64,000 bases of DNA from Polyangia bacterium (GTDB taxonomy: Bacteria > Myxococcota_A > Polyangia > Palsa-1104 > JAEUJZ01), in the NCBI GenBank assembly GCA_046351595.1, contig JAXLYE010000002.1, positions 1,304,022-1,368,021 on the forward strand. Reading direction: 5' to 3'. Every line of letters begins with the position of its first letter. Position 1 is the first letter of the stretch. Both the position numbers and the translations under genes were made by a program. Shown here piece after piece: positions 10,330 through 26,474 of the stretch. Under the pieces are notes generated by a model. That model was not told the DNA's origin, searched no databases, and worked only from the letters and a program-made list of their open reading frames with translations.

Positions 10330-10344
10330 TGGCATGCCGGTTGC
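10330..10344 (+). promoter_or_regulatory. Possible sigma54-type -24/-12 element TGGCAT-N5-TTGC upstream of hemG
   Basis: gtGGCATgccggTTGCgc has GG-N10-GC spacing. It lies only about 14 bp before the ATG at 10358, so the leader would be very short, hence the low confidence. Confidence 0.3.
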
Positions 10345-10357
10345 GCACCCGGGCAGT

Positions 10358-11047
10358 ATGGACCCGATCCTGATCCTGTACGCGACCCGCGAGGGGCACA
10401 CCCACCGCATCGCCGACCACATCGCCGAGCTGCTCTGCGCGCACGGCCTGCCCGTCGAGCAGCGCGACGCCCGCAACATCAAGGAGCCGTTCGACTGCTC
10501 GGGCTATGCGGCGGCGATCCTGGCCGCCTCGGTGCACCTGCAGCACCACGAGCGCGAGATGGTAAGGTTCGTGAAGCGGCACCGCGACGCGCTCGAGCGC
10601 CTGCCCAGCGCCTTTCTGTCGGTCAGCCTGTCGGAGGCCGGGGCCGAGGCCGACGCGGTCAGCCCGGAGCGGCGCGCGCGGTCGGCGGCCGACGTCGATC
10701 GCATGCTCAGCGGGTTCTTCCACGAGACCGGCTGGCACCCGGATCGGGTGTCGCCGGTGGCGGGCGCGCTGCGGTACACGAAGTACGGCCTGCTGCTGCG
10801 CTGGATCATGAAGCGCAAGGCGCGCAAGGCCGGCGCCTCGACCGACACCTCGCGCGATCACGCGCTGACGGACTGGGAGGGGCTGGATCGTTTCATCACC
10901 GCGTTCATGCACCTCTTGCCGCACACCGAGGACGCGCCGGCCGCGCATTCGGACCCCGCCGCGCGGCCCGGCAGCGCCCCGAAAGAGCAGAAGGACCAGA
11001 AGGACAGACCGGACAGCGACGGGGCGAGCCGGGGGCGGCCGGCGTGA
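10358..11047 (+). CDS. hemG: Menaquinone-dependent protoporphyrinogen IX dehydrogenase (flavodoxin-like), with a low-complexity C-terminal tail
   Basis: MDPILILYATREGHTHRIADHIA...SAFLSVSL...GALRYTKYGLLLRWIMK aligns with the HemG family along its length. The start is chosen at MDPI rather than the upstream ATG at 10334. Confidence 0.85.
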   Translation: MDPILILYATREGHTHRIADHIAELLCAHGLPVEQRDARNIKEPFDCSGYAAAILAASVHLQHHEREMVRFVKRHRDALERLPSAFLSVSLSEAGAEADAVSPERRARSAADVDRMLSGFFHETGWHPDRVSPVAGALRYTKYGLLLRWIMKRKARKAGASTDTSRDHALTDWEGLDRFITAFMHLLPHTEDAPAAHSDPAARPGSAPKEQKDQKDRPDSDGASRGRPA

Positions 11048-11062: not shown

Positions 11063-12397
11063 TCACAGCACCGCGTGCGCGGGCTGCCTGCGCGGCAGCG
11101 TCACCGTGAACGTCGCGCCCTTGTCCGGCACCGCGGCGGCGGTGATGGTGCCGCCGTGGCGCTCGGCGATGCGGCGGCAGATGGCCAGGCCGACGCCGCT
11201 GCCCTCGTACTCGCTGCGGCCGTGCAGGCGCTGGAACAGGCCGAAGATGCGCTCGGCGTAGCGGCCCTCGAAGCCGATGCCGTTGTCCGCGACCACGAGC
11301 TCGATGCGCTCGGTGCCGCTCGGGTCGGGCGGCAGCGGGTTGACGGTGATCCGGACGACGGGGGAGCGGCCGGGGTGGCGGAACTTCAGGGCGTTGCCGA
11401 TCAGGTTCTGCAAGAGCTGGCGCATCTGCGTGCGGTCGGCCTGCACGACGGGCAGCTCGCCGGCCTCGATGGTCGCGCCGACCTGCTCGATGCGCACCTC
11501 GAGATCGGACAGCACCTCGCGCAGGACCTCGCCGAGCGCCACCATCTTGAACGGCTGCCCGCGTGTCACGACCCGCGAGAAGGTCAAAAGGTCCTGGATC
11601 AGCGTCTGCATGCGCACCGCCGCGCTCTGCATGCGCATCAGGTAGTCCTTGGACTGATCGTCGAGGTGGGGGGTGCGGCTCTTCAGGCGCTCGCCGAACG
11701 CCTGGATCTTGCGCAGCGGCTCCTGCAGATCGTGCGAGGCGGCGAAGGCGAAGTCCTGCAGCTCGCGGTTGCTGCGCTCGAGCTGCACCGTGTACTGCGC
11801 CAAGAGCAGGTTGGCGCGCGACAGGTCCGCGGTGCGCTCCTGCACGCGCTGCTCGAGCAGGTCGTGGGCGCGGCGCAGCTCCTGCTCGGCGAGCTTGCGC
11901 TCGGTGATGTCGCGGATGATGCACAGGATCTGCTCGGGGCGGCTGTTGCGCACCGGGCCGAGCGCGACCTCGACCGCGAACTCGCTGCCGTCGGCGCGGC
12001 GGCCGTGTAGCTCGAGCGCCGAGCCCATGCGGCGGGCGCGCGGCGCCTGCGTATAGCCCTCTCGCAGGCCCACGTGCCGCTCGGCGTAGCGCGCCGGGAT
12101 CAGCGCCTCGACGGGCAGGCCGATCATCTGGCCGCTGCCGTAGCCGAATATCAGCTCGGCCTGCGGGTTGGCGCGCAGGATGCGGCCGTCGTGCGTGACC
12201 AGCAGCGTCGCGTCCGGGGCGTACTCGAACAGGCTGTCGGAGACGTCGCCCGGCTTGTCGCCCGGCTTGTCGCCCGGCTTGTCGCCCGGCTTGTCGCCCG
12301 ACTCATCGACAGACGCGTCTCGTGACTCGCGGTGCGGCTCGGCCGGTGGTGCGGGGTTCGCGGGGTCTTCGGGGGTCGTGTGCGGTTCGGGAGGCAT
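11063..12397 (-). CDS. PAS-domain sensor histidine kinase with no adjacent response regulator; N-terminal (GDKP)x4 repeat
   Basis: A PAS fold is followed by HisKA (ASHDLQEPLRKI) and HATPase_c (NLIGNALKFR...GSGVGLAICRRIAERHGG). It is the last gene downstream of the cbb3/ccoG block, with a 30-bp gap after the DsbD_2-like gene. Confidence 0.85.
   Translation of the reverse strand: MPPEPHTTPEDPANPAPPAEPHRESRDASVDESGDKPGDKPGDKPGDKPGDVSDSLFEYAPDATLLVTHDGRILRANPQAELIFGYGSGQMIGLPVEALIPARYAERHVGLREGYTQAPRARRMGSALELHGRRADGSEFAVEVALGPVRNSRPEQILCIIRDITERKLAEQELRRAHDLLEQRVQERTADLSRANLLLAQYTVQLERSNRELQDFAFAASHDLQEPLRKIQAFGERLKSRTPHLDDQSKDYLMRMQSAAVRMQTLIQDLLTFSRVVTRGQPFKMVALGEVLREVLSDLEVRIEQVGATIEAGELPVVQADRTQMRQLLQNLIGNALKFRHPGRSPVVRITVNPLPPDPSGTERIELVVADNGIGFEGRYAERIFGLFQRLHGRSEYEGSGVGLAICRRIAERHGGTITAAAVPDKGATFTVTLPRRQPAHAVL
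12245..12304. repeat. In-frame 12-bp tandem repeat x4-5 (gtcgcccggctt) encoding (GDKP)n in the PAS kinase
   Basis: Direct reading of the DNA and the translation. Confidence 0.85.
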
Positions 12398-12427
12398 GGG
12401 TTCCCTCGGCAGCAGGCGGCGCGGGGC

Positions 12428-13234
12428 TCAGAACAGCATCAGCAGCAGCGGGCGGCCGAGCACGGTCACGCCGATGTGCTGGTGCGCGATCAGACCGAGT
12501 CCGGCCGCGCCGCACAAGAGCAGCCACACGCCTGCGACGGCGGGCAGCACGCGCGCGAGCCGGGTGCGCAGGCCGCCCTGCGTGCGGAACAGCGCCAGGC
12601 GCGGCAGCGCGGTCACGGTAAGCAGCATCGGCGTCGTCATCGCGCACAGAAGCAGCATCACCAGCGCGCCGCGCAGCGCCGAGCCCGAGAGCGCGGCCAG
12701 CCCGAGCGCCCAGCCGACGAGCATGCAAGGCAACAGGCCCATCGCGGCGCCGAGCGCCAGCGGCCGCAGCGGGTGCGTGCTCTCGAGCAGCGGGCGCAAG
12801 AAGCCCTGGGCGCGCTCGACGCTGCGCAGCTGGAAGCTCTTGCCTTCGTCGGCGCTGCGGCGCAGGCGGACGAGCTCGGGCGCGGGCCGTGCCTGCTGCC
12901 CTCCGAGCTGCAGGCGCTGCAGGAGCGGTCGCAGCAGCGGCCACAGCGCCGCCACCCCGAGCGCGAGCGCGAGCAGCGAGCCGGCCGGCCGCAGGATCCG
13001 CGACAGCCCGGCGCCGAGCAGCCCGCACAGCGCGCCGAGCCAGGCGTAGGTCAGCGAGCGGCCGAGCTGGTACAGGAGCACCTGGCCCGCGCCGCGTAGG
13101 GCGCTGCGCCCGCTGCGCACGCCCGCGACGTCCAGCCCGACGAGCAGCGGTCCGCACATGCCGGCGCAGTGCGCGCTCACCCAGACCAGGCCGAGCCCGA
13201 GCAGCTGCGCGTAGGGGCTGGGCAGCGCGCTCAT
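12428..13234 (-). CDS. DsbD_2-type membrane protein, the kind usually annotated sulfite exporter TauE/SafE-like next to ccoG
   Basis: It is polytopic and hydrophobic, carries an HCAGMCGP motif in the first helix, and its ATG overlaps the ccoG stop (ATGA). Confidence 0.6.
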   Translation of the reverse strand: MSALPSPYAQLLGLGLVWVSAHCAGMCGPLLVGLDVAGVRSGRSALRGAGQVLLYQLGRSLTYAWLGALCGLLGAGLSRILRPAGSLLALALGVAALWPLLRPLLQRLQLGGQQARPAPELVRLRRSADEGKSFQLRSVERAQGFLRPLLESTHPLRPLALGAAMGLLPCMLVGWALGLAALSGSALRGALVMLLLCAMTTPMLLTVTALPRLALFRTQGGLRTRLARVLPAVAGVWLLLCGAAGLGLIAHQHIGVTVLGRPLLLMLF

Positions 13235-14667
13235 GGCGAGCGACCCGGTGCGGCAAACAGCAGCGGACCGGCAAAGGGGACCTCGAGCTCGCGCACCGCG
13301 CCGCTGCGCTCGTCCGTGATGCGCAGCGTCGCGTGACGGCCGGGGCGGAAGCCGCTCTTTTGCGCCGACAGCACGACCGTGATGGCGCGGCTCTCCAGCG
13401 GCGCCAGGCTGGCCTCGGGCTGCGGGATGAGGACCTGCAGCCCGGACGCATCGGCCGGCGGCTGCGACGCATTGGCCGGCGCGCTGATGCGCAGGGTCAC
13501 GGGCTCGGCGCGCTTGTTGATGACGTGCACGAGCACGTGGTTGCGCACGGTGTCGCCGTCGATCACGTAGGGCGCGCCGCGACCGCGCACGAGGTTGGCC
13601 TCGAACGGCTGGTAGCGCGCGAACGCGGTGGCGAGCGCCAGGAGGCCGAGCAGGCCGAGACCGGCGTAGGCGATCACGCGCGGGCGGATGAAGCGGCGCG
13701 GCTCGCCGTCGAGCGCGCGCTCGCTGTCATACCGGATGAGGCCCGGCTTGCGCCCGACCTTGAGCATGATCTCGTCGCAGGCGTCGATGCAGCCGGCGCA
13801 GCCGATGCACTCCATCTGCAGGCCGTTGCGGATGTCGATGTCGGTCGGGCACACCGCGACGCAGCGGCGGCAGTCGATGCAGTCGCCGGCGCCCGTCGCG
13901 CCGACCTTGCCGCGCGGCTCGCCGCGGCGCTTGTCGTAGCCGATGACGACGGTGTCGCGGTCCTGCATGGCCGACTGCAGGCGCCCGTACGGGCAGAGGA
14001 TCAGGCAGAACTGCTCGCGGAACCAGAAGAAGTTGAAGTAGAGGATCCCGGTCAGGCCGATGCCCCAAAGGAACGCGGTCCAGTTCGCGAGCGGGTTGTC
14101 CCGCATCATGCGCAACAGCTCGGGGATCGAGACGAAGTACGCCAAAAACAGGTGCGCGAGCACGAACGAGACGAGCAGGAACAGCGCGTGCTTCAGCACG
14201 CGGCGCGCCAGCTTGTTGAGCGTCCAGGGCGCACGCGCCAGCGCCGCGCGGGCCGTGGCCGGGCCCTCGATGAGGCGCTCGATGCGGCGGTAGATTCCCT
14301 CGAGCAGCACGGTCTGCGGGCACGCCCAGCCGCAAAAGATGCGGCCGAACAGCGCGGCCAGCACGATGAGCACGAAGCCGACGCCGCTGACCACGAAGAA
14401 CAGGTAGAAGAAGTCCTGCGCGTTGAAGACCTTGCCGAACAGGTAGAAGCGGCGCTCCAAGATGTTGATGAAGACGGCGGGGTGGCCGTTCACCGTGATC
14501 CAGGGCAGGGCCAGGTAGATCAAGAGCAGCAGCGCAAAGACACGCGGGCGCCAGCGGGTGAAGCGGCCCTGCACGTCGGCGGGGTAGATGTAGCGGCGCC
14601 CGCCGCGCTCGTCCAGGACGTGCAGCTTGTCAAGGCCGGGCGAGGAGCGGGTGCGCGACTGGGTCAT
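13231..14667 (-). CDS. ccoG: cbb3 oxidase accessory protein CcoG/FixG (polyferredoxin with a FixG_C Ig-like domain)
   Basis: FCGWACPQT and CIDCRRCVAVCP...CIGCAGCIDAC 4Fe-4S motifs are present, plus the C-terminal beta-domain. Confidence 0.9.
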   Translation of the reverse strand: MTQSRTRSSPGLDKLHVLDERGGRRYIYPADVQGRFTRWRPRVFALLLLIYLALPWITVNGHPAVFINILERRFYLFGKVFNAQDFFYLFFVVSGVGFVLIVLAALFGRIFCGWACPQTVLLEGIYRRIERLIEGPATARAALARAPWTLNKLARRVLKHALFLLVSFVLAHLFLAYFVSIPELLRMMRDNPLANWTAFLWGIGLTGILYFNFFWFREQFCLILCPYGRLQSAMQDRDTVVIGYDKRRGEPRGKVGATGAGDCIDCRRCVAVCPTDIDIRNGLQMECIGCAGCIDACDEIMLKVGRKPGLIRYDSERALDGEPRRFIRPRVIAYAGLGLLGLLALATAFARYQPFEANLVRGRGAPYVIDGDTVRNHVLVHVINKRAEPVTLRISAPANASQPPADASGLQVLIPQPEASLAPLESRAITVVLSAQKSGFRPGRHATLRITDERSGAVRELEVPFAGPLLFAAPGRSP

Positions 14668-14727
14668 GGGAGTCTCCGCGAGCTCGTTCTGGGCGGGCTC
14701 GTTCTGGGCGTTCTCAAGCGGGCGCGC

Positions 14728-15411
14728 TCAGGGCGCCACCTGCCCGGTCGCGCTCGTGCCCTGCGGCGCCTTTCCGGGGACGTTGGTGTCGCGGAGCGAG
14801 AGGACGTAGGCGACCGCCTCCTTGACCTTGGTCGCGCCGAGCACCGGCTTCCACGACGGCATGCCCTTGTCGAGGACGCCGGCGCTGACGCTGCCGTAGA
14901 TGTCGCGCGCCTTGCTGCCGTGGATCCAGTAGCCGTCGGTCAGGTTGGGGCCGACCACGCCCTGGCCGCGATCGCCGTGGCACGCGACGCAGTTCTGCTT
15001 GAACACCGCGGCGCCGCGCGCGACGGCCTCGGGATCACGGCCCAGGGCGGTGAGCTGCTCTTCGGTGACGCCCTTGCCCTGTGCCTCCAGCGCGGCCTCC
15101 AGGGCGTCCTGCTCTTCCTGGGCGCGGCGCAGCTCGTCGCGGAACGCGGCCATCGGCAGGAGGCCCGCGCCGAGCGTGTGGTAGTAGAACCAGTACACGA
15201 CCGAGAAGGCGATGGCGCCGTACAGCGTGAACAGCCACCAGCGCGGCAGCGGGTTGTCGAGCTCGCGGATGCCGTCGTAGTCGTGTCCCGTGTCGGGGGC
15301 CGTGTCCTGAACCCCGTCGTGGACCCTGTCGTGGACCCCGTCGTGGACCCTGTCGTGGACCCTGTCGTGGACCCTCTCTGGGCTCACGGTTTCCTGTGTC
15401 GTAGCGCTCAT
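14728..15411 (-). CDS. ccoP: cbb3-type cytochrome c oxidase subunit CcoP, monoheme variant with an N-terminal (RVHD)n repeat
   Basis: The family signature DGIRELDNPLPRWW and a transmembrane helix are followed by a single CVACHG heme site. No second CxxCH was found. Confidence 0.85.
   Translation of the reverse strand: MSATTQETVSPERVHDRVHDRVHDGVHDRVHDGVQDTAPDTGHDYDGIRELDNPLPRWWLFTLYGAIAFSVVYWFYYHTLGAGLLPMAAFRDELRRAQEEQDALEAALEAQGKGVTEEQLTALGRDPEAVARGAAVFKQNCVACHGDRGQGVVGPNLTDGYWIHGSKARDIYGSVSAGVLDKGMPSWKPVLGATKVKEAVAYVLSLRDTNVPGKAPQGTSATGQVAP
15304..15375. repeat. In-frame 12-bp tandem repeat x5-6 (gtcgtggaccct) encoding (D/G)RVHD repeats at the CcoP N-terminus
   Basis: Direct reading. Confidence 0.85.
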
Positions 15412-15632
15412 GGCGACTCCCTCCCTTCGCTCGGCGCGGCCGCCCTGCCCGCAGCCTGAGCAACCGCCGTGCCGTCGTCGCTGAGCGGCAGCCCGGCCAG
15501 CTCGGCGTAGGCCGCGCGCTGCGAGCCGCGCAGCGTGTACAGGACCGCAGCGACGAACGTGATCAGGAACGACAGCATCGCCACGATCGGGAGGATCAGG
15601 AGGCCGCGTCCGGAAAAGAACTCGTGGTACAT
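15408..15632 (-). CDS. ccoQ: Small single-TM cbb3 subunit CcoQ/FixQ-like
   Basis: It is 74 aa with one hydrophobic helix (LLILPIVAMLSFLITFVAAVLY), lies between ccoNO and ccoP, and its stop overlaps the ccoP start. Confidence 0.7.
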   Translation of the reverse strand: MYHEFFSGRGLLILPIVAMLSFLITFVAAVLYTLRGSQRAAYAELAGLPLSDDGTAVAQAAGRAAAPSEGRESP

Positions 15633-15660
15633 GGGAACGTCTCCAGTTGCCTGCTGGCCG

Positions 15661-15728
15661 GTTACTCTCTGGCCACTTCCTGTTACTGATTTGTTACTTC
15701 GTCGTTACCGCGGCGCCCGGCCGTTACT
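15661..15728. promoter_or_regulatory. Five direct GTTAC(T/C) repeats in the ccoNO-ccoQ intercistronic region (spacings 21, 11, 12, 18 bp)
   Basis: The pair TGTTActgattTGTTAc is 11 bp centre-to-centre, which resembles ArcA/OmpR-family direct-repeat boxes. Confidence 0.35.
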
Positions 15729-18063
15729 TCCTGGCCTCGGGCGCCGCTGCGGTCGTCGCCGCCGTCGCTGTCACCGCAGAGCCCGGGTTCTTGCCGAGGC
15801 GCTGCAGGTACGCGATGAGCGCGACCATCTCGCTGTCCCATGCAACCGGCGCGCCCTGGCTCGCGAGCTCACTGGCGATGCCCTTGGCCTGGGACTCCAG
15901 GTCGCTGTTCGCGCTCGACAGCTCCGCCGCCGAGTAGGGCACGCCGAGGGTGCGCATCGCGCTCATCTTCACCGTCGTGTCGCCGGTGTCGATCGTGCGC
16001 TGGAGCAGGAACGCGTACGGCGGCATGTTCGAGCCCACCGACGTGACCCGCGGATCGATCAGGTGCTGGTAGTGCCACAGGTGCGAGTACTTGCCGCCGA
16101 CGCGGTGCAGGTCCGGGCCGGTGCGCTTGGAGCCCCACTGGAACGGGTGGTCGTAGATGAACTCTCCCGCGGTGCTCGGCTCGCCGTAGCGCAGCTTCTC
16201 GCCCTGCAGCGGGCGCACCATCTGCGAGTGGCAGACGTAGCAGCCCTCGCGCACGTAGATGTCGCGGCCGTGCAGCTCGAGCGGGCGGTAGGGCGTCTGC
16301 ACCGGGCCGGTGCGCGGCACCGCGCGGTCGACGACCAGCGTCGGCAGGATCTCGGCGACACCGCCGACCAGCACCGCGATGAGCGCCAGCACCGAGAACA
16401 AGAGCGAGCGGCCCTCGAGCACGCGGTGCACGTCGATGCGGCCTCTGTCATCGCGCGGCACGCCGAACACGAACCACGCGGCGACCACCAGGATGACCAT
16501 GCCGGTGATCAGCAGCGTCGCGACCGGGATCTGATCGACCAGGAAGAAGGTGCCGAGGATCACGAAGGCCGCCACCGAGATCAGGATCGGCGTCGAGAAC
16601 ACCAGGCGCGTCCACGGGATCGTCGGGCGCGCCGGCTCGGGCTCGGGGTCGAGCACCTCGACCGTGGTGTCCACCGGCGTGCCGGCGGCGATGGTCTTGC
16701 CGAGGTTCCAGGCCATGAGCAGGAAGCCGACCAGGTACATCGTGCCGCCCACCGCGCGCGTCATGTACAGCGGCCGGATCGCCAGCAGCGTCTCGACGAA
16801 GCTCGGGTAAAGGAGCGCTCCCTCGGAGGTCGTGGCGCGCCACATCAGGCCCTGGGTGATGCCGCTGATCCACATCGAGATCGTGTAGAGCAGGATGCCG
16901 AACGTGCCGAGCCAGAAGTGGAAGTCGGCGGCGGCCTTGCTGTGCAGCGGGCGGTTCCACAGCCGCGGCACCAGGAAGTAGAACATGCCGGCGGCCATGA
17001 AGCCGTTCCAGCCGAGCGCCCCGGTGTGGACGTGGCCGATGATCCAGTCGGTGTAGTGGGCCAGGCCCGAGACGCTCTTGATCGAGAGCAGCGGGCCCTC
17101 GAACGTCGCCATGCCGTAGAACGTCACGCCGGCGATCAGGAACTTGAGGACCGGATCCGTGCGCAGCTTGCCCCAGGCGCCGCGCAGCGTCAGAAGTCCG
17201 TTGATCATGCCGCCCCACGACGGCGCCCACAGCATCAGCGAGAACAGCATGCCCATCGACTGCGCCCAGTCCGGGAGCGCGGTGTAGAGCAGGTGGTGCG
17301 GCCCGGCCCAGATGTACATGAAGATCAGGGCCCAGAAGTGGATGATGCTGAGCCGGTACGAGTACACCGGGCGGCCCGCGGCCTTGGGCAGGAAGTAGTA
17401 CATGATGCCGAGGATCGGGGTGGTCAGGAAGAAGGCGACCGCGTTGTGCCCGTACCACCACTGCACCAGCGCGTCCTGCACGCCGGCGAAGACCGAGTAG
17501 CTCTTGATGCCCTTGCCGATCGGCAGCGCCAGCGAGTTCACGACGTGCAGCACGGCCACGGTCAGGATGGTGGCGATGTAGAACCACAGCGCGACGAACA
17601 GGTGCTCTTCACGGCGGCGCTTCAGCGTTAAGAAAAAGTTGATGCCGAAGGTGATCCACACCAGCGCGATGGCGATGTCGATCGGCCACTCGAGCTCCGC
17701 GTACTCCTTCGACTGGGTGATGCCGAGCGGCAGGGTGATCGCGGCGGCGACGATGATGAGCTGCCAGCCCCAGAAGTGGACCGCGGACAAGAGGTCGCTG
17801 GCCATGCGCGCCTTGCACAGCCGCTGCGTCGAGTAGTAGATGCCGGCGAAGAGCATGTTGCCGACGAACGCGAAGATGACCGCGTTGGTGTGCAGCGGCC
17901 GCAGGCGCCCGAAGCTGAGCCAGGGCGCGAGGTTCAGCTGGTGGAAGGCGAGCTGGCAGGCGATGAACACGCCGACGAGCATGCCCACCGCGCCCCAGAA
18001 GACGGAGGCGAGCAGGAATCGTCTCACAGAGCGATCGTCATAGGTGATGGATACGGGCTTCAT
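15724..18063 (-). CDS. ccoNO: Fused cbb3-type cytochrome c oxidase subunits I and II (CcoN-CcoO)
   Basis: The N-terminal 12-TM heme-copper oxidase segment ([15 protein letters not shown]...) continues in one frame into a CcoO-like monoheme domain ([11 protein letters not shown]...[11 protein letters not shown]). Confidence 0.9.
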
Positions 18064-18221
18064 GGTCCTTCCTCTTGCATCGGGGGCTCCTCCTCCAGCG
18101 GGAGGAGCGAAAGTCGGTCGGAGTGCTCGTGCGTGCGCCGCAGGAACAGCGCGCCGAACAAGAGCGCGAACAGCAGCACGAGGATCAAGCTGACGAACAG
18201 CGTCAGGTAGATGGCGTTCAT
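18060..18221 (-). CDS. ccoS: cbb3 oxidase maturation protein CcoS/FixS (53 aa, single TM)
   Basis: [35 protein letters not shown] is the size and architecture of CcoS. Its stop overlaps the ccoNO start, and its ATG overlaps the ccoI stop (ATGA). Confidence 0.7.
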
Positions 18222-20737
18222 GCGGTCACCTCGGCGGGGGCTGGCAGCAAGCGCGGTGCCTGCCGGAGCGGCGCCTCGCGGGGCGCGGCCTGCGCCTCTG
18301 CGCTGCGGAACGAGCGCAGCGTCGCCAGCACGACCAGTAGGGAGCTCACCGGCATGAGCAGCGCGCAGCGCAGCGGCGTCATCATGCCGGCGAGCGCCAG
18401 CGCGACCACGGCGACGTTGTAGGCGCCGCTCAGGAGCAGGTTGCGGACGATGACGCGGCGCAAGAAGCGCGCGGTCGCGAGCGACTCGGCGATGGGGCCG
18501 AGGCCGTGGCCCAGGAAGTAGAAGTCGGCGCGCGCGGGCAGGGCCGGGCGCTCGGTCGCCGGCGTGCCCGCGCAGAGCGCGGCATGGAAGGCGAGGGCGT
18601 CGTTGATGCCGTCGCCGATCATCATCGTGTCGGGCGAATCGGGCGCGCCGATGCGCTGCACCGCGGCCGCCTTGTCCTCGGGGCGCAGGCCGCCGAGCGC
18701 CTGCTCCGCGGGGACGCCGAGCCGAGTCGCCAGCGCGCTCACCCGCTCGGGCTGATCGCCCGAGAGCAGCCACACCTTGTAGCCGGCCGCGGCGAGCGCA
18801 TCGACCTGGTCGCGCGCGTCCGGGCGCAGCTCCTCGCGGAAGCGGAAGCAGGCGCGGAGCGTGCCCGCGATGCTGAACAAAAGCGCGCCGCCGCTCCCGG
18901 GAGGAGTCGGGGACGCGGTCGTGGCGTCTGCGCCCACGAACTCGGCGGTGCCGAGGCGCACGGCCTGGCCCGCGAGCTCGGCCACGAGGCCGCGGCCCGG
19001 CTCCTCGAGCACCACGGTCGCGGTGTCGAGCACCGGCGGCGCCGCCATCATGCGCACGAGCGCGTCGAGCAGGGCGCGGCTGCGCGGGTGGTTGGAGCGC
19101 GCCACGAGCTGGTACAGGGCGCCGCGCTCGGTCACGCCAAGCGCACGGAGCGCCTCGGGGTTCTCGAGCGCCGGCTCCAGCGCGGTCAGCGTGCCGGTCT
19201 TGTCGAACAGCACCTTGCGCACGCGCAGCGCGCGGTCGAAAAACGTCACGTCGCGGACGAACAGGCCGAGGCGGCGCAGCCGGCCCTGCGCCAGCTCGTA
19301 GGCCAGCGGCGTCGCCACGCCGAGCGCGCACGGGCACGTCACCATGAGCAGCGCCGCGGTCACCTCGAGCGCGCGGGCGCCGTCACGCGGCAGCCACAGC
19401 CCGAGCCCGAGCGCGGCCAGCGCCAGCACGCCGAGCACGTAGTAGCGGCTCAGGTGGTGCCAGAAGTCGCGCCGCGGCTCGCTCGTGCTCGGGTCGCGGC
19501 GCGCGCGCAAAAGCTCGCACAGCGCCGAGGCGCGGAAGTCCTCGGTGGCGCGCAGCCGCACGGCGCGGCCGCCGGCGCTCGCCGCCAGGTTGTGGGCACC
19601 GGCGGGGGCGCGATCGCCGCGCGTGAACAGCCGCGGCTCGGCCTCGCCGCTGATCCACTCCAGCGACAGGAGCGCGCGCTCCTCCAGGCACTCGCACGCG
19701 GTCGGCAGGAGCTCGCCGGGCGCGCACAGGAGCTCTTGGCCCGCGCGCAGCTCGCTCGCCGGCAGCAGGCGCATGCGGCCGTCGCCGTCCACCGCGCGGA
19801 CCACGAAACCGGCGATGCCCTCGTCGCTGAGCAGGACGCGGCGGTTGTGGCTGGCGATGCGCCGCTGGATCAGGCGCCCCATCAGCATGAGCGCGATGAA
19901 GGTCGTCAGCGTGTCAAAGTACGCGGACTGGCCGCCGCGGCTCACAAAGGCCCAGGCGCTGCCCGCGTAGGCCAGCAGCATGCCGAGCGCGATCGGCACG
20001 TCCATGTGCAGGATGCGCCGCCGCAGCGCACCGATCGCCGAGCGGACGAAGACGCTGCCGCCGAGCAGCAGCGCGGCGGTGGCGAGCGCGAAGCTGCCGA
20101 TCGAGAAGATGCGGTACAGGCCCGAGTCCGCGCCGCCGCTGCCGCCACCGTCTTCCAGGCCGAAGTAGATGGCGAACGAAAAGATCATGCTGTTCATGGC
20201 CAGCGCCGCGCACAGGCCGAAGCGCAGCAAGAGGTCATCGCCCTCGTCATCGGGGCGCTTGCGCGGCGGCCCGGCGCGGTAGCCGAACGGCTGCAGCTCG
20301 TCGAGGAAGCGGCCGAGGATGCGGCTGCCCTCGCCGGACTGCCAGAAGACCTCGGCGCGGCCGAGCGCGGGGTTGATGGTGATCGCGCGCGCGCCCGGGA
20401 TGCGGCGGAACAGCCGCTCGATCAGCCACACGCACGCCGCGCACTGCAGGCCCTGCAGATCCAGGGTGAGGCGCGCGGTGCCGCTCTGCGCGCTCTGCTC
20501 CGCTGCCTCGATCAGCGGCGCCAGCCAGGTGCGGCTGTCTTCACCGCGCGCGGAGCCCGGGACCGCCAGCCGCTGCCCGTCGAGCAGATCGTAGAAGCGG
20601 GAGAGGCCGGCCTGCTCGATCAGCTCGTGCGCGGCGCGGCAGCCGGTGCAGCAGTAGGGCGCAGTCGCCGCACCTTTTGCGATCGGGCTGTGACAGTGCG
20701 GACACGTGCTGCGCATCAAAAAACTTCCTTCCAACAA
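18218..20737 (-). CDS. ccoI: Copper-translocating P1B-type ATPase CcoI/FixI
   Basis: An N-terminal Cys-rich metal-binding region is followed by the TM CPC motif (TCPCALGV), DKTGTLT and GDGINDA. Confidence 0.9.
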
Positions 20738-20810
20738 CTTCCCTGCAAGCTGCTTCCGTTTCTGCGCGGCCCGGGGCGCGGGCCGCAGTCCCCCCTGAAG
20801 TGCTGCGCGA

Positions 20811-21221
20811 TCAGCCGGCCAGGCGGGTGTGCAGGAGCTCCGCCAGCGCCGTCAGGCCATCGACCGCGGTGAACAGGCCGACGACCTTGTCGTTCTGCAT
20901 GACCACCGCGGAGCCGTACTTCTTGGCCGCCATCTCGCGCGCGACCTCGTCGAGCAGCGCGTCGGGAGAGACGGTGTAGACCTCGGTCGACATCGCGTCC
21001 GCGACCGTCACCTGCGCGGGGTCGACGTCCTTGAAGGCCTCGACCATCCGCAGATCCCGATCGCTCAGCAGGCCCACCAGCGTGCCGCCATCGAGCACCG
21101 GCAGGTGGCGGATGTGGTGCTGCTGCATCACCTTGTGCGCGTCGGCCAGCGTCATGCTGGGGCGGATGGTGTGCGGGGTGGTGGACATGTACTTGTGGAC
21201 TCTGGGAATCGGTTTGCTCAT
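20811..21221 (-). CDS. CBS-pair domain protein
   Basis: Two CBS repeats are present (HIRHLPVLDGGTLVGLLSDRDL and GSAVVMQNDKVVGLFTAVD). The RBS is GGAGGAG, and it lies 73 bp upstream of ccoI on the same strand. Confidence 0.8.
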   Translation of the reverse strand: MSKPIPRVHKYMSTTPHTIRPSMTLADAHKVMQQHHIRHLPVLDGGTLVGLLSDRDLRMVEAFKDVDPAQVTVADAMSTEVYTVSPDALLDEVAREMAAKKYGSAVVMQNDKVVGLFTAVDGLTALAELLHTRLAG

Positions 21222-21481
21222 GGCGTGAAGCTCCTCCGCGCCGCCTCTTGCGCATGCGCCATGCCAGCGCGCGCTCGCCGCTCCTCGACGAGCTCGTAGC
21301 GGACGCGTGCCGGAACCGTCACTCCCGCGTAACGATAGGGTGCGCGCGGTAACGCTCCGGGGCGGGAACGTGCCGCGCTCTCTCGACGGGGCGGCGTGGC
21401 CTGGCTCTTGCTTTTCTCAACAGCCATGGCCGCCGCCGTGCGGTAACGCCGGACCCGGAGCCATGCGGGCCCACAGCGCCC

Positions 21482-21517
21482 CTGCCGTGCGCAGGCCCCT
21501 GCCGTGCGCAGGCCCCT
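21482..21517. repeat. 17-19 bp tandem repeat x2 plus a partial copy (gccgtgcgcaggcccct) immediately upstream of the usp gene
   Basis: Direct reading, 20 bp before the usp RBS. The motif GCGGTAACGC also occurs twice in the same divergent region (about 21349 and 21440). Confidence 0.75.
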
Positions 21518-21537
21518 CCCGTGCTTAGGAAGGTTAG

Positions 21538-22119
21538 ATGGAAGCCGACAAGATGACCCTTTTGGTTGGTATCGACTTCAGCGCGTTCTCCGAGCGCGCG
21601 CTGGCCCTCGCCGTCGAGATCGCGGTGCGCATGCGGGCCCGCCTGATCGTCGTCCACGTCCGCGATCTCGGCGTCATCGCGCCGCCGGGTGAGTTCGTGC
21701 CGGCGCCGGTCCTGACCGCGCTGATCGAGCGCTTCAATGAAGAAGGGCTCGCGGTGCGCAACCAGTGCAACGAGATGTGCCAGCGCATCGTGAAGGACCG
21801 CGTGGACGCCACCGTGCACGTGCTGACCGGGCCGGCCGCCGAGTCGATGGTGACCGCCATCAAGGCCCTCAAGCCGGACCTGGTCGTCGTCGGCAGCCAC
21901 GGCCGCGGCGCGCTCAAGCGGCTCTTGCTCGGCAGCGTCTCGACGGCGCTGTGCCAGCGCAGCCCGGTGCCGGTGCTGGTGGTGCCGCCCGCGGAGGCGG
22001 CGCAGCCCGAGCACCTCTCGGGAACGCCGGAAGCGCCCGCGGCACCGCAGCGTGACGGCGCAGGCGGCACCGCAGCGGAACACGCGGCCGCGGTAACCGC
22101 GGACGGCCAGTCGGGATAG
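21538..22119 (+). CDS. Universal stress protein (UspA family)
   Basis: LLVGIDFS...LIVVHV...VVGSHGRGALKRLLLGSVS...PVLVV. The RBS is GGAAGG. Confidence 0.85.
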   Translation: MEADKMTLLVGIDFSAFSERALALAVEIAVRMRARLIVVHVRDLGVIAPPGEFVPAPVLTALIERFNEEGLAVRNQCNEMCQRIVKDRVDATVHVLTGPAAESMVTAIKALKPDLVVVGSHGRGALKRLLLGSVSTALCQRSPVPVLVVPPAEAAQPEHLSGTPEAPAAPQRDGAGGTAAEHAAAVTADGQSG

Positions 22120-22168
22120 GATGGAGCTCGCGCCCGCGCGGGCGCGGCGGCGCGCAGGCGACCGCTCC

Positions 22169-22267
22169 TGAAACCGGGTGAAACATCCTGAAACGAGTTC
22201 TCGACGGCGTGAAACAAGTTGAGCGATCGCTGAAACAGAAGTGAAACAGAGCGAGACAGGGTGAAAT
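22169..22267 (+). promoter_or_regulatory. Array of seven same-orientation (G/C)TGAAA(C/T) repeats in helical phase, upstream of the CoA-transferase gene
   Basis: Copies start at 22169, 22179, 22189, 22210, 22231, 22242 and 22262. The spacings are 10, 10, 21, 21, 11 and 20 bp. Confidence 0.6.
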
Positions 22268-22384
22268 AGCGTGAGCGGCCGAGCGCCCGGCGGGCCTTTT
22301 TGAGGCACCTGGGCACGCGCACGGCCTGAAGCCATGGACCGCGGCGCGGCTCTTGCCGGCGCGGCGCAGAGGAAAAAGGACAAG

Positions 22385-23698
22385 ATGAGCGAGCCCGCAG
22401 CCGCGACCCCGCCCCCGGGAGCCGCATCCAAGTACGTGAGCGCCGAGGAGGCGCTGCGCCTCGTGCGCTCGGGGATGCGCGTGTACATCCACACCGCCGC
22501 CGCGGCGCCGCACCGCCTGATCAGCGCCCTGGTCGCGCGCTCGGGCGAGCTGCACGGCGTCGAGATCGTGCACCTGCACACCGAAGGCCCGGCGCCCTAC
22601 ATCCTGCCGCAGCACCTGCAGGCGTTCCACGCCAGCGCGCTGTTCGTCGGCCCGAACCTGCGTGACGCGGTCAACGACGGGCGCGCCGACTACATCCCGG
22701 TGTTCCTCAGCGAGGTGCCGCGGCTGTTCCGGCGCGGCGTGCTGCCGCTCGACGTGGCGCTCTTGCAGGTCTCGCCGCCCGACGTGCACGGCTACTGCAC
22801 GCTCGGCATCTCGGTCGACGTCGCGCGCGCGGCCGCGGACTGTGCGCGCATCCTCATCGGCCAGGTCAACCCGCACATGCCGCGCAGCCACGGCGACGGC
22901 ATGCTGCACATGAGCCGCTTCGCCGCGCTGGTCGACTCCGACGATCCGCTGCCCGAGCACAAGCCGGCGCCGCTCAGCGAGGCCGAGCGCGCGATCGGCC
23001 GCGGCGTCGCCTCTCTGGTCGAGGACGGCGCCACCCTGCAGATGGGCATCGGCGCCATCCCCGACGCGGCGCTCGCCGCCCTCGGCTCGCACCGCCGCCT
23101 CGGCGTGCACAGCGAGATGGTCTCGGACGGCGTCATCGACCTGGTCGAGCGCGGCGTCATCACCGGCGAGAACAAGCGCACCCACCCGGGCGTCCTGGTC
23201 GCCGCCTTCGCCGTCGGCAGCCGCCGCCTGTACGACTTCATCGACGACAACCCCGGGGTCAAGATGCTCGACGTCGGCTACGTCAACGACACCGACGTCA
23301 TCCGCCGCAACCCGCAGGTCACCGCCATCAACAGCGCGCTCGAGGTCGACGTCACCGGCCAGATCTGCGCCGACTCGATCGGCGAGCGCCAGTTCTCCGG
23401 TGTCGGCGGCCAGATGGACTTCATCCGCGGCGCGGCGCTGTCCGAGAACGGCCGGCCGATCATCGCGCTGCCGTCGGTGACCTCGCGCGGCGAGTCGCGC
23501 ATCGTCGCGCACCTCAAGACCGGCGCCGGCGTGACGACGACGCGCGCGCACGTGCACTACATCGTGACCGAGTTCGGCGTCGCCTATCTGTACGGCAAGA
23601 GCCTGCGCGAGCGCGCGCGCCTGCTCATCGACATCGCCCATCCCGACCACCGCGAAGCCCTGAGCCGTGCCGCCCATGAGCGCTTTGGCCGTCTGTAA
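22385..23698 (+). CDS. Acetyl-CoA hydrolase/transferase family protein (4-hydroxybutyrate/acetate CoA-transferase-like)
   Basis: The architecture matches AcetylCoA_hydro plus its C-terminal domain over the full length (GMRVYIHTAAAAP...EVDVTGQICADSIG...). The start is chosen at the second ATG with RBS AGGAAAAAGGA; an alternative start is at 22334. Confidence 0.8.
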   Translation: MSEPAAATPPPGAASKYVSAEEALRLVRSGMRVYIHTAAAAPHRLISALVARSGELHGVEIVHLHTEGPAPYILPQHLQAFHASALFVGPNLRDAVNDGRADYIPVFLSEVPRLFRRGVLPLDVALLQVSPPDVHGYCTLGISVDVARAAADCARILIGQVNPHMPRSHGDGMLHMSRFAALVDSDDPLPEHKPAPLSEAERAIGRGVASLVEDGATLQMGIGAIPDAALAALGSHRRLGVHSEMVSDGVIDLVERGVITGENKRTHPGVLVAAFAVGSRRLYDFIDDNPGVKMLDVGYVNDTDVIRRNPQVTAINSALEVDVTGQICADSIGERQFSGVGGQMDFIRGAALSENGRPIIALPSVTSRGESRIVAHLKTGAGVTTTRAHVHYIVTEFGVAYLYGKSLRERARLLIDIAHPDHREALSRAAHERFGRL

Positions 23699-24305
23699 AG
23701 CCGGACCCCACCCGGGCGCGCGCATCGTGCTCACCGGCGGCCCCGGCGCCGGCAAGACCGCCGTGCTCGAGATCGCGCGCAAGAGCTTCTGCAGCCGCAT
23801 CGCGTTTCTGCCCGAGGCCGCGAGCATCGTCTTCGGCGGCGGCTTCTGGCGGCGGCAGACGCAGGCCGGGCGCAAGGCCGCGCAGCGCGCGATCTACTAC
23901 ATCCAGCGCGAGCAGGAGCGCATGGTGCAGGACGAGCCCGAGTTCGGATCGGTCCTGTGCGATCGCGGCACCCTCGACGGGCTGGCGTACTGGCCGGGGG
24001 AGGAGGCGACGTTCTGGCAGGAGCTCGGCACCACGCGCGAGGCGGAGCTTTCGCGCTACCACGCGGTCATCCACCTGCGCACGCCGCCGCCCGATCGCTA
24101 CAACCACCAGAACCCGCTGCGCACCGAGGACGCGGTGACCGCGCACGCCATCGATCAGCGCATCGCGCTGGCCTGGGAGGGCCACAAGAACCGCGCCTTC
24201 ATCGAGAGCAGCGCCGACTTCGTCGAGAAGGTGCAGCGCGCCATCGCCCTCATCAAGGACAACCTGCCGGAGTGCTGCCGGCAGCACCAGCTCGTCCTGC
24301 CGTAG
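23676..24305 (+). CDS. Stand-alone P-loop ATPase (AAA_28-like)
   Basis: Walker A is LTGGPGAGKT. Its start overlaps the CoA-transferase 3' end; the exact start (23667 or 23676) is uncertain. Confidence 0.65.
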   Translation: MSALAVCKAGPHPGARIVLTGGPGAGKTAVLEIARKSFCSRIAFLPEAASIVFGGGFWRRQTQAGRKAAQRAIYYIQREQERMVQDEPEFGSVLCDRGTLDGLAYWPGEEATFWQELGTTREAELSRYHAVIHLRTPPPDRYNHQNPLRTEDAVTAHAIDQRIALAWEGHKNRAFIESSADFVEKVQRAIALIKDNLPECCRQHQLVLP

Positions 24306-24345: not shown

Positions 24346-25047
24346 TTGGGCATGAAGATCCTCATCGTTGAAGACGAAGAGCGCATGGCGCGCATGCTGC
24401 GCCGCGGCCTGCTCGAAGAGGGCCACCAGGTCGATCTGTGCGCGACCGCGGACGCGGCGGCCGAGCAGGCGCTGAGCATCCCGTACGACGTGATCGTGCT
24501 CGACTGGATGCTGCCGGATCAGGACGGCGTCACGCTCCTGCGCGCGTGGCGGCAGCGCGGGCTGCGCACGCCGGTCCTGATGCTGACCGCGCGCGGCACC
24601 ACGGGCGAGAAGGTCACCGGCCTGCGCGCCGGCGCCGACGACTACCTGACCAAGCCGTTCGACTTCGACGAGCTTCTGGCGCGGCTGGAGGGCCTGCACC
24701 GCCGCGGCGGCGCGCACGAGCCCACGGCCGGCCTGGGCGCGGCCAGCCTCGATGCGCGGCGGCGGGTGCTGCGCGGCGCCGGCGGCGAGGTGGCGCTGAC
24801 CGCGCGCGAGTTCGCGCTGCTCGAGGAGCTGCTCGGGCACCGCGGCGAGGTGCTGACGCGCTCGCGCCTGCTCGGCACGGTGTGGGGCTCGGACCTCGAC
24901 GTCACGCCCAACGTGGTCGACGTGTACATCGGCTACCTGCGGGCCAAGCTCGAGCAGGTCGGCGCGCGCGGCGTGTCGCTGCAGACCGTGCGCGGCATCG
25001 GCTACCGCCTGGTCGTCGACAGCGACGAGAGGACGCAGCGCTCGTGA
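24346..25047 (+). CDS. OmpR/PhoB-family DNA-binding response regulator (heavy-metal CusR/CzcR-like)
   Basis: The receiver has ILIVEDE, DVIVLDWMLP and TKPF. The winged-helix output has LTAREFALLEEL...VYIGYLRAKL. Confidence 0.9.
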   Translation: MGMKILIVEDEERMARMLRRGLLEEGHQVDLCATADAAAEQALSIPYDVIVLDWMLPDQDGVTLLRAWRQRGLRTPVLMLTARGTTGEKVTGLRAGADDYLTKPFDFDELLARLEGLHRRGGAHEPTAGLGAASLDARRRVLRGAGGEVALTAREFALLEELLGHRGEVLTRSRLLGTVWGSDLDVTPNVVDVYIGYLRAKLEQVGARGVSLQTVRGIGYRLVVDSDERTQRS

Positions 25048-26474
25048 GGCTGGCGACGCGCATGTGGCTGCTCGGCGCGCTGGTGCCGACGCTGGGCGCG
25101 CTGCTGCTGCTGGTCGTCGCCGGCGGCTGGTTCCGCCGCCACCTCGAGGCCGCGCTCGATCGCGCGCTGCTCGCGCAGGCCGCGGTGGAGAGCGTGAGCC
25201 TGTTCGACGGTCCCGGCGGCCGCGTCCACCTGCACATGGCGACGTCGCCGCTGGTCGACAGCGTGCGGCCGTTCGCGCCGACCGGCGACCTGTTCGGGCC
25301 CGACGGGCGCCTGGTCATGAGCTACCCGCCGCGGCTGCCCGGCGCGGTGGCCGACGTGCCGCACCTGCCGGCGCAGCCGGTGCAGCCCGGCCAGCCGCCG
25401 CGCCTTGGCACCCACACCGAGCGCAGCGGCGCGCGCTTCCGCGAGCTGGTGGTGGCGGTGGCGGCGCCGCTGCAGCCGTCGTCTCCCTCGTCGCCGGGCG
25501 GCCTGTATACGCTGCGGCTCGCCGCGTCGCTCGACCAGCTCGATCGCTCGACGCGGGTGTTCTACCAGACGACGCTCAGCCTGGTGGCGCTGTTCGGCGG
25601 GCTGCTGTTCGCGCTGCAGGCGGTGCAGGCGCGGCGGCTCGGGGCGCGGCTGCGCGGCATCGGCGCGCACATGGCGGCGCTGCGCGAGGGCAACCTCGAT
25701 CAGCCGCTGGCGCCGGACCCGACGCACGACGAGGTCGGCGAGCTGCGCGCGGTGATCGCCGAGGCCACGGCCAAGCTGAGCGCCGCGCGAAAGGGGCAGG
25801 AGCGCTTCCTCGCCGACGCCGCGCACGAGCTGCGCACGCCGCTCGGGCTGATGCGCACCAGCCTGGATCTGGCGCTGCGCCGGCCGCGCTCTCCCGAGGA
25901 GCTGCGCGCGACGCTGCAGGAGGTGCGCAGCGAGGTGGTGCGCCTGGGCGCGCTGTGCCAGCGGCTGCTCGATCGCTCGGCGCTGGCGCAGGCCGACTGG
26001 GATCGGCGCGCGGTCGAGCTGCGGGCGCTGGTCGCCGAGGCGGCGCTGGCTGCGCGCGCGCAGGCCGAGGAGCGCGGCCTGCTGATCGAGATCGAGGGCC
26101 CGGACGCGCTGACCCTGCGCGGCCACGCGCCGTCGCTGCGGCAGGCGCTCGACAACCTGCTCAGCAACGCCCTGCGCTTCGCCCCCGCGGGGACGCGCAT
26201 CGTGGTGCAGCTCGCGCGGGCCGGGGCGAGCGTGGCGGTCGCGGTCTGCGACGAGGGACCGGGCGTGCCGCCGGCGCAGCGCCCGCACCTGTTCTCGCCC
26301 TTCCACCGCGGCGCGCCAAGAGGCGGTGAAGCGGGCGCCCCGAGCGAGACGTTCGGGCACGGCCTGGGCCTGAGCATCGCGCGCGAGATTGCGACGCGGC
26401 ACGGCGGGCGCCTCTACCTGGACGAGCAGGCGCCGCGCGGCGCGCGCTTCGTGCTGGAGCTGCCGAGCGGCTGA
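25044..26474 (+). CDS. Sensor histidine kinase with two TM segments and a periplasmic loop (CusS/CzcS-like)
   Basis: Its GTG start overlaps the response-regulator stop (GTGA). HisKA has ADAAHELRTPL. HATPase_c has LDNLLSNALRF...GHGLGLSIAREIATRHGG. Confidence 0.85.
   Translation: MRLATRMWLLGALVPTLGALLLLVVAGGWFRRHLEAALDRALLAQAAVESVSLFDGPGGRVHLHMATSPLVDSVRPFAPTGDLFGPDGRLVMSYPPRLPGAVADVPHLPAQPVQPGQPPRLGTHTERSGARFRELVVAVAAPLQPSSPSSPGGLYTLRLAASLDQLDRSTRVFYQTTLSLVALFGGLLFALQAVQARRLGARLRGIGAHMAALREGNLDQPLAPDPTHDEVGELRAVIAEATAKLSAARKGQERFLADAAHELRTPLGLMRTSLDLALRRPRSPEELRATLQEVRSEVVRLGALCQRLLDRSALAQADWDRRAVELRALVAEAALAARAQAEERGLLIEIEGPDALTLRGHAPSLRQALDNLLSNALRFAPAGTRIVVQLARAGASVAVAVCDEGPGVPPAQRPHLFSPFHRGAPRGGEAGAPSETFGHGLGLSIAREIATRHGGRLYLDEQAPRGARFVLELPSG

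Follow-up and report, generated by a model that had tools for sequence, protein, structure and literature searches.

We analysed a 64,000-nucleotide (nt) stretch of bacterial DNA (hereafter, the window), approximately 72% G+C, from a GC-rich genome; the nearest relatives of this genome in public databases are metagenome-assembled genomes (MAGs) of Myxococcota. On its minus strand the window carries a gene cluster for a cbb3-type cytochrome oxidase, and the last gene of the cluster encodes a histidine kinase with a PAS domain. Genes were read as minus-strand open reading frames (ORFs) by translation and profile searches, and the domain searches bore out the genes and the gene order called in the initial annotation. 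The series opens with ccoI (18218-20716), the product of which is a Cu(I) P1B-ATPase of the CopA2 type that has the Pfam domains E1-E2_ATPase and Hydrolase along with ATPase-cat_bd, a domain typical of CcoI, followed by a ccoS-like ORF of 53 amino acids with a single transmembrane helix (18060-18221; assigned by position and clade conservation), a fused ccoNO gene of 779 amino acids (15724-18063; NF011053, TIGR00780 and TIGR00781), ccoQ (74 amino acids, 15408-15632; Pfam FixQ, E = 9e-6), and a one-heme ccoP (227 amino acids, 14728-15411; FixP_N and one Cytochrome_CBB3 domain). Next are ccoG (478 amino acids, 13231-14667; TIGR02745, and Pfam Fer4_18, Fer4_5 and FixG_C), a gene for a DsbD_2-family membrane protein of 268 amino acids (12428-13234), whose assignment is confirmed by PF13386 (E = 1.6e-26), and finally the gene for a soluble PAS-HisKA-HATPase histidine kinase of 444 amino acids (11063-12397; Pfam and NCBIfam), all on the minus strand.

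Four junctions (ccoI/ccoS, ccoS/ccoNO, ccoQ/ccoP and ccoG/DsbD_2) are ATGA overlaps, and the remaining intergenic gaps measure 30-91 bp. No terminator-like sites above the shuffled expectation were found within the unit. The start/stop overlaps had been read as the mark of an operon that starts with ccoI; the overlaps stand, but the unit probably begins one gene earlier, at a gene for a CBS-pair protein of 136 amino acids (20811-21221, minus strand; Pfam CBS, E = 3.4e-26). This protein is 74% identical to the product of the CBS gene that precedes ccoI in L082, one of the kinase-bearing contigs described below. We infer a single unit from the CBS gene to the kinase because of the overlaps, the short gaps and a conserved promoter-like motif in front of the CBS gene.

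CcoN and CcoO lie on one polypeptide, as was initially proposed: the single ORF scored 1188 bits against NF011053 (cut-off 1080), and also passed the equivalogs for ccoN (TIGR00780, 668 bits, cut-off 583) and ccoO (TIGR00781, 226 bits, cut-off 201). CcoN occupies residues 1-465, and after a linker CcoO runs from residue 546 to approximately 760, leaving a short C-terminal tail. Solved CcoN chains match the CcoN part from end to end (E ~1e-185), and solved CcoO chains match the CcoO part. The ligand motifs for heme b, heme b3 and CuB, together with the helix-7 tyrosine, are present in LHTNAV (residue 57), YGHNAV (204), YIWAGPHH (250) and GHVHTG (343); the assignment of individual ligands follows PDB 3MK7. 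The FixO domain spans residues 546-758 and has its CxxCH, CYVCH, at residue 608. In the hydropathy profile, the linker shows two extra hydrophobic segments ahead of the CcoO anchor, with which the CcoO heme domain would regain its periplasmic orientation.

The FixQ match of ccoQ (25.9 bits) falls just under the Pfam cut-off of 29; the gene is also present in L081, the locus with the most similar kinase. CcoP contains a single CxxCH (residues 141-145) and ends after its one cytochrome c domain, and alignment to diheme CcoP revealed one heme domain and no second motif, so that the initial reading of this subunit holds. Which of the two heme domains it represents depends on the comparison: alignment with solved two-heme CcoP chains favours the membrane anchor plus the first heme domain, whereas the NCBIfam ccoP profile puts it on the second. 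The N-terminal cytoplasmic tail of CcoP carries an in-frame 12-nt tandem repeat, HDRV-like and present eight times (15280-15375), and the low-complexity N-terminus of the kinase carries a perfect in-frame 12-nt repeat encoding GDKP (4.7 copies, 100% identical, 12245-12300). Both repeats may be recent expansions, because both proteins are longer here than in L081 (227 versus 198 amino acids for CcoP and 444 versus 418 for the kinase). Judged from the sequence features of its genes, the cluster most likely specifies a heme-copper oxygen reductase of the C family (cbb3), complete and functional and belonging to the fused-CcoNO class, along with maturation genes.

To place the cluster among its relatives, one genome per species was scanned, which yielded 80 fused-ccoNO loci, and the window proteins and two profiles were mapped onto these. 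The loci come from Myxococcota, Verrucomicrobiota, Planctomycetota, Bacteroidota, Ignavibacteriota, Bdellovibrionota, Acidobacteriota and other phyla, and the best species-representative CcoNO match is 65% identical to that of the window; a search of public assemblies for an exact match to this CcoNO gave none. We distinguish a clade A (loci L001-L023, 17 of them informative), in which CcoNO is 58-65% identical to the window protein and which comprises Myxococcota, Verrucomicrobiota, Planctomycetota and one member of Eiseniibacteriota, from a clade B with 51-57% identity that is mostly Bacteroidota. The standard layout of the class is ccoI, a small ORF, ccoNO, a small ORF, ccoP and ccoG, with DsbD_2 further along. 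CcoP has one CxxCH at 66 of the 69 loci where it was called, and a DsbD_2 homologue is present in 60 of the 62 loci with sufficient flank (16/17 in clade A and 44/45 in clade B).

The canonical maturation proteins CcoI and CcoG are present by domain or equivalog. CcoI has its CPC motif at residue 461 and DKTGT at residue 505; CcoG, a cupric reductase according to the literature, scored 399.9 bits against TIGR02745 (cut-off 316.7). CcoS is recognized by position and clade conservation. Pfam FixS gave no significant match to the 53-amino-acid ORF (E = 4.6), and TBLASTN identified counterparts that are 40-54% identical at the equivalent position in Myxococcota and Verrucomicrobiota loci. In clade A the motif in which this peptide ends opens with F(E/D) and closes with (D/E), as compared to SGQYDD...VRMLFDDE in classical CcoS. 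By these sequence criteria the small ORF before ccoNO is a divergent, clade-specific form of CcoS, a small maturation peptide, and because this form lies below the Pfam FixS threshold it is likely to be unannotated in the genomes concerned.

The DsbD_2 protein has the family-invariant motifs S-x-HC-x-x-MCGP in its first helix and LPC(G) in its fourth, and this putative intramembrane His/Cys/Met site suggests a role in the handling of Cu(I) or thiols during oxidase maturation. Our literature search found no paper that joins "DsbD_2" and "cbb3". The reported absence of a FixH/CcoH gene was confirmed with a profile for FixH, made from 37 such ORFs at fused-ccoNO loci, three representatives of which were confirmed as PF05751: there were zero matches in all six frames of the 64 kb. 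This empty search, together with the normal lengths of CcoG and DsbD_2, ruled out a FixH that is hidden in another frame or fused to either protein. The absence extends to the clade, with FixH in 0 of the 17 clade-A loci versus 42 of the 45 clade-B loci, in which a gene of approximately 148 codons sits between ccoG and DsbD_2; clade A retains DsbD_2 either after ccoG or ahead of ccoI. Limited sensitivity does not by itself account for this split, because the profile detects FixH in clade-B loci of Verrucomicrobiota, Planctomycetota, Acidobacteriota and SAR324.

Four features, namely fused CcoN and CcoO, a CcoP with one heme, the presence of DsbD_2 and the absence of FixH, thus mark the class or the clade and are not peculiar to this genome. 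The closest CcoNO relatives, in the Myxococcota, Verrucomicrobiota and Planctomycetota MAG loci of clade A, have all of these features and the divergent ccoS-like ORF as well; two of them (L003 and L004) have a gene order identical to that of the window up to DsbD_2, whereas several others have DsbD_2 upstream of ccoI and, in Verrucomicrobiota, ccoI comes after DsbD_2. The clusters of Bacteroidota and Ignavibacteriota (Flavobacterium, Pedobacter and Melioribacter roseus, for example; NF011053) resemble the window in gene order, fused subunits I and II and one-heme CcoP, but differ in their FixH, in the lower CcoNO identity given above and in a CcoS with SGQYDD. Fused CcoNO is already a named NCBIfam class and has been discussed for Melioribacter and Bacteroidetes; in M. 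roseus it was treated as a typical cbb3 oxidase, with maximal transcription under microaerobic growth (PMC5492636). With the canonical proteobacterial ccoNOQP-ccoGHIS (fixNOQP-fixGHIS) system the window cluster has in common the enzyme family, the catalytic residues, CcoG, CcoI, CcoQ and a CcoS-like peptide, and expression tied to low O2 would be expected here as it is there. The canonical system differs in its separate ccoN and ccoO, its two-heme CcoP (three hemes in Neisseria), a CcoH that is present and essential, the lack of a DsbD_2 gene, and regulation through FixLJ-FixK or Fnr as opposed to the sigma-54 activator that we propose below. The label "non-canonical" that was initially attached to the locus is therefore apt only against the proteobacterial model, as the layout is normal for the widespread fused-ccoNO class: the oxidase cluster is an ordinary member of that class, from its FixH-less clade.

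We turn to the kinase at the end of the cluster, for which the initial domain call proved correct. It has no transmembrane segment and consists of one PAS domain (residues ~55-170, 11888-12235) and a complete kinase core, whose H-box histidine is His222. Among solved structures the best match to the PAS domain is 10jx_A, the PAS of an uncharacterised "multi-sensor" kinase, and the next matches are the heme-PAS domains of RmFixL (E = 2.6e-12), BjFixL and DosP. The histidine of the F-alpha helix, His108 (codon 12074-12076), aligns with the proximal heme ligand of these FixL proteins (RmFixL H194, BjFixL H200) and is invariant in 17 orthologues that are 57-89% identical to the window kinase. A search of the domain for heme- or FAD-binding residues thus found the heme-ligand histidine kept. 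A tryptophan is the signature of FAD-type PAS domains; the sequence of this PAS domain contains no tryptophan and no LOV cysteine motif. These alignments make heme binding by the PAS domain through His108 probable, and O2 or redox state the likely signal. The resemblance to rhizobial FixL-FixJ includes the full-length PAS alignment, the proximal histidine, the kinase core and an association with the control of cbb3 (fixNOQP).

To learn the company that this kinase keeps elsewhere, we defined an orthologue group as a tight set of PAS kinases of approximately 400 amino acids from a protein search, and examined nine contigs. In six of the nine contexts (L081, L082, L086, L087, L088 and the P0014 contig; 58-89% identity), cbb3 genes lie within 10 kb of the kinase, in varied arrangements. 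L081, whose kinase is 89% identical, repeats the window, with ccoNO-Q-P-G-DsbD_2-kinase and then a convergent flavodoxin gene. In L088 (73%) the order is ccoG-DsbD_2-kinase, after which come genes for a receiver protein and for a receiver-kinase hybrid. L082, L086 and L087 have a kinase/receiver/hybrid operon, some with an NtrC-type gene, 5-8 kb from CBS/Usp/ccoI or DsbD_2/ccoG/ccoP genes, and on the P0014 contig an NtrC-type gene precedes the kinase, which abuts DsbD_2 and ccoI-ccoS-ccoNO-Q-P-G. The kinase directly follows DsbD_2, with a spacer of 24-30 bp, in three cases, the window among them. Across the group, a receiver protein and a receiver-kinase hybrid lie directly downstream of the kinase in seven of the nine contexts, and an NtrC-type gene is adjacent in six (in the same operon in L082, L084, L086 and L089; upstream in L087 and P0014). 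No FixJ-type gene adjoins the kinase in the window or in the orthologue loci. The initial statement that no response regulator lies nearby is therefore accurate for the operon in the window and fails as a general trait of this kinase.

The partner genes recall a known relay of Myxococcus xanthus that hypoxia activates: the globin-coupled kinase NmpU, which depends on heme, is joined in it by the receiver protein NmpT, the receiver-kinase hybrid NmpS and the NtrC-like activator NmpR (PMC11841059). Under NmpR control, from sigma-54 promoters, are a CBS-protein operon, hemN-hemerythrin, a universal stress protein (USP) gene, an operon for a P-type ATPase and a cbb3 oxidase, and also nmpUTS (PMC11841059). 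The orthologue operons of L082, L084, L086 and L089 match NmpRSTU (PMC11841059, PMC6211767) in their order of soluble kinase, receiver, hybrid and NtrC-type activator, and in gene content the regulon matches the genes that surround the window kinase and its orthologues: CBS, Usp and ccoI-cbb3, with hemerythrin in one contig. The two systems differ in that the Nmp sensor is a protoglobin, whereas the window kinase has a FixL-type PAS and no globin domain was detected in it; the receiver protein has one receiver domain in the orthologue module versus two in the Nmp system; and the window kinase, unlike NmpU, is encoded away from its partners, in the last gene of the putative target operon.

Candidate promoters for a sigma-54 activator are present at the locus. 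The pattern TGGCAY-N6-TGCR has only 2 matches in the 64 kb, against 0.8 expected. A sigma-54-type -24/-12 candidate, TGGCATGGCGCATGCG (21251-21266, minus strand), ends approximately 30 nt before the CBS start codon, and L082 has TGGCATGCAGCGTGCG at the equivalent place before its CBS-ccoI genes and the near-identical TGGCATGTAGCGTGCG before its kinase operon. A second sigma-54-like element, TGGCATGCCGGTTGCG (10330-10345, plus strand), lies before a Flavodoxin_5 gene (10358-11047, plus strand; Pfam, E = 6e-28) that converges on the kinase; it is kept in L081, as are GTYACC...GGTRRC sites upstream of it. The start codon of the flavodoxin gene is probably ATG 10358, not 10334; because the element is only 12 nt upstream of that ATG, the predicted mRNA would be nearly leaderless. 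With this arrangement the flavodoxin gene may belong to the cbb3 regulon. A sigma-70 promoter scan found none, against 0.4 expected.

Other repeated elements may serve as binding sites. In L082, perfect GTTACC-N4-GGTAAC palindromes stand in front of two operons, that of CBS-ccoI and that of the kinase. The window has none, even with up to 2 mismatches, and shows half-site clusters only: of just 15 GTTAC/GTAAC half-sites in the 64 kb, three GTAAC copies (21329-21447, minus strand) lie in the 316-bp spacer between the CBS gene and a divergent Usp gene, and five (15661-15727, minus strand), partly with 11-nt spacing, lie in a stretch of 67 bp at the 91-bp ccoNO-ccoQ spacer, a position at which L081 has conserved GTARC repeats. 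The five copies may form a DNA site or an RNA element, and the three between CBS and Usp may be decayed palindromes of the L082 type. Tandem Repeats Finder also identified a 17-bp tandem unit (21478-21524, minus strand; 2.8 copies, 96% matches), each copy with the palindrome CCTGC-N5-GCAGG. The two exact copies of that palindrome in the 64 kb are both here, adjoining the Usp start codon, and L082 has a different repeat (CTGTCCCGGG, four times) at the equivalent place. The repeat, some 210-260 bp upstream of the sigma-54-like promoter, is a candidate activator-binding site.

We propose that the window encodes an intact fused-CcoNO cbb3 oxidase together with a kinase that feeds an O2 or redox signal into an Nmp-like relay acting through an NtrC-type activator and sigma-54, a reading to which we assign a probability of roughly 0.65. 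In this model, transcription would begin at the CBS gene from the sigma-54-type promoter and run through to the kinase; CcoI would export Cu(I), the ccoS-like peptide and CcoG would serve maturation, and the DsbD_2 protein would be their conserved companion. The kinase would bind heme via His108, sense O2 or redox state, and feed a multi-step phosphorelay like NmpU-T-S-R in which a PAS sensor replaces the globin. We favour a relay because the orthologous kinase heads a kinase/receiver/hybrid/NtrC-type operon next to or near cbb3 genes. At low O2, the NtrC-type activator would turn on, from sigma-54 promoters, the operon that runs from CBS and ccoI to the kinase, and with it the genes for Usp and flavodoxin; lying inside an operon that it helps to control, the kinase would itself be under feedback. 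The initial suggestion of a plausible O2 or redox sensor linked to the oxidase now has stronger support from the FixL-like PAS, the kept histidine, the cbb3-linked orthologues and the NmpRSTU precedent.

A number of observations weigh against this proposal, and the first of them concern the sensor. BjFixL R220, on the distal side of the heme, serves O2 discrimination. The corresponding position is Leu in the window kinase and Leu, Met, Gln, Asn or Ala in orthologues, BjFixL R206, likewise not conserved, is replaced by Gly, and the kinase scores 92.8 bits against the NCBIfam FixL equivalog, for which the cut-off is 850. The H-box is also of another type (SHDLQEPL) than that of the rhizobial FixL proteins. 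By sequence, then, the PAS domain is FixL-like and is not that of a FixL.

The same residues raise the alternative that the kinase is tied to the oxidase through a heme-free PAS, one that senses redox, a metabolite or a protein partner, or that the kinase acts mainly as a phosphatase or phosphate sink. The equivalents of BjFixL R206, H214 and R220 are all unconserved, the closest solved structure, 10jx_A, belongs to an uncharacterised kinase, and some members of the FixL/DosP PAS cluster have other cofactors (PMC10468136). We nonetheless consider this version improbable, at about one chance in five, as the F-alpha histidine is described as the primary heme determinant in that cluster (PMC10468136) and is invariant in 17 of 17 orthologues, all of the other named top structural matches are heme-PAS proteins, and the analogous input kinase NmpU is heme-dependent (PMC11841059).

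Further points against the proposed relay concern promoters and partners. As many as 21 of 100 shuffled sequences reach 2 matches of TGGCAY-N6-TGCR, so the count in the window is not significant by itself, and what backs each sigma-54-like site is positional conservation in one other locus. The NmpR consensus, GCGCA-N5-TGCGC, is uninformative because DNA of 72% G+C gives 307 window matches with two or fewer mismatches. The window holds no orthologue of the receiver, the hybrid kinase or the receiver-containing NtrC protein within its 64 kb; the relay is thus drawn from other genomes, and the partners must be encoded outside the window. In addition, the likeness to NmpRSTU is one of gene order, domain logic and regulon as given in the published description, NCBIfam having no Nmp models. 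Finally, cbb3 genes within 10 kb are lacking from three of the nine orthologue contexts (L084, L089 and the P0011 contig). L084 and L089 carry the four-gene kinase/receiver/hybrid/NtrC-type module away from cbb3 genes, and the P0011 contig has kinase, receiver and hybrid without an NtrC-type gene, amid Usp, CBS and hemerythrin genes.

These three contexts would fit a PAS kinase that is a passenger downstream of the oxidase operon, sensing an unrelated signal and having no regulatory tie to cbb3. So would the unconserved distal Arg of FixL, the great abundance of such PAS kinases (8000 matches at E < 1e-20), and the fact that no similar kinase occupies a conserved operon-end position among the 80 species-representative loci: clade-B loci have none in a conserved place at their 3' end, none of the clade-A loci ends with the PAS kinase, and beyond the window this arrangement was met on just two metagenome contigs, L081 and L088. 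We judge a passenger to be less likely still than a heme-free sensor. Proximity to cbb3 genes recurs in two-thirds of the contexts at 58-89% identity and in differing arrangements, including the three placements directly after DsbD_2; the CBS, Usp, acetyl-CoA hydrolase and hemerythrin neighbours fit the known hypoxia regulon (PMC11841059); and the kinase operon and CBS-ccoI operon of L082 have promoter and palindrome motifs in common.

That the cluster is instead degenerating or non-functional, with CcoH and one CcoP heme domain lost by decay, might be argued from the sub-threshold Pfam scores of ccoS and ccoQ and from the essential role of CcoH in cbb3 assembly in Rhodobacter capsulatus and Campylobacter jejuni (CcoH is missing from some purified complexes; PMC8267372), but it is highly improbable given that every reading frame is intact, that G+C at third codon positions is 0.88-0.96 in the minus-strand ORFs from 11063 to 21221, that the catalytic ligands are present, and that the gene set is conserved over 17 loci of several phyla.

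The unit is flanked by further genes. Divergent from the CBS-cbb3 unit, 21538-24305 holds the universal stress protein gene (21538-22119, plus strand; Pfam Usp, E = 4e-29), which is syntenic with that of L082 (52% identity), a gene for an acetyl-CoA hydrolase/transferase (85% identity with its L082 counterpart), and an AAA_28 gene. In L082, L086, L087 and P0014 these three are again found close to the PAS kinase or to cbb3 genes, which suggests a conserved low-oxygen gene island. Farther out, 3.6 kb beyond ccoI, is a gene for an OmpR-type response regulator (24346-25047, plus strand), with a probable histidine kinase gene right after it (~25064-26329, plus strand). We considered this regulator as a partner of the PAS kinase and regard it as an unlikely one, because its own kinase gene directly follows and because the orthologues of the PAS kinase have single-domain receivers and hybrids as partners.

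Two further sets of sigma-54-like matches were recorded in the window. The best match to the consensus, TGGCACCTGCCTTGCT (10/11 positions, 726-741), lies approximately 57 nt upstream of a gene for a PilZ-plus-receiver protein (798-1742). Matches of 9/11 occur on the coding strand in the 3' ends of ccoI (18246-18261), ccoNO (15841-15856) and ccoQ (15459-15474); each is upstream of the next gene, and they may be promoters internal to the unit or coincidences of GC-rich coding sequence.

The oxidase cluster by itself adds little to what is known beyond showing that features which are odd by proteobacterial standards are the rule across much of the bacterial domain. The FixH split between clades A and B, with DsbD_2 retained in both, does offer a natural experiment on cbb3 assembly. 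As a broader and more tentative idea, which we hold at somewhat less than even odds, a lineage of Myxococcota-like bacteria may have swapped the Nmp globin sensor for a FixL-type heme-PAS that in some members became wired into the 3' end of the cbb3 operon, and cbb3 assembly in this clade may proceed free of FixH/CcoH, relying on the DsbD_2 protein with its HCxxMCGP and LPC motifs. The kinase would then bridge FixL-type heme-PAS sensing and an Nmp-type multi-kinase relay to NtrC/sigma-54 output, and the M. xanthus hypoxia regulon of CBS protein, USP and cbb3 oxidase is suggested to extend to a wider group with interchangeable sensor modules. If the proposal is correct, the locus would constitute a self-adjusting transcription unit, driven by sigma-54, that joins an O2 sensor to its oxidase.

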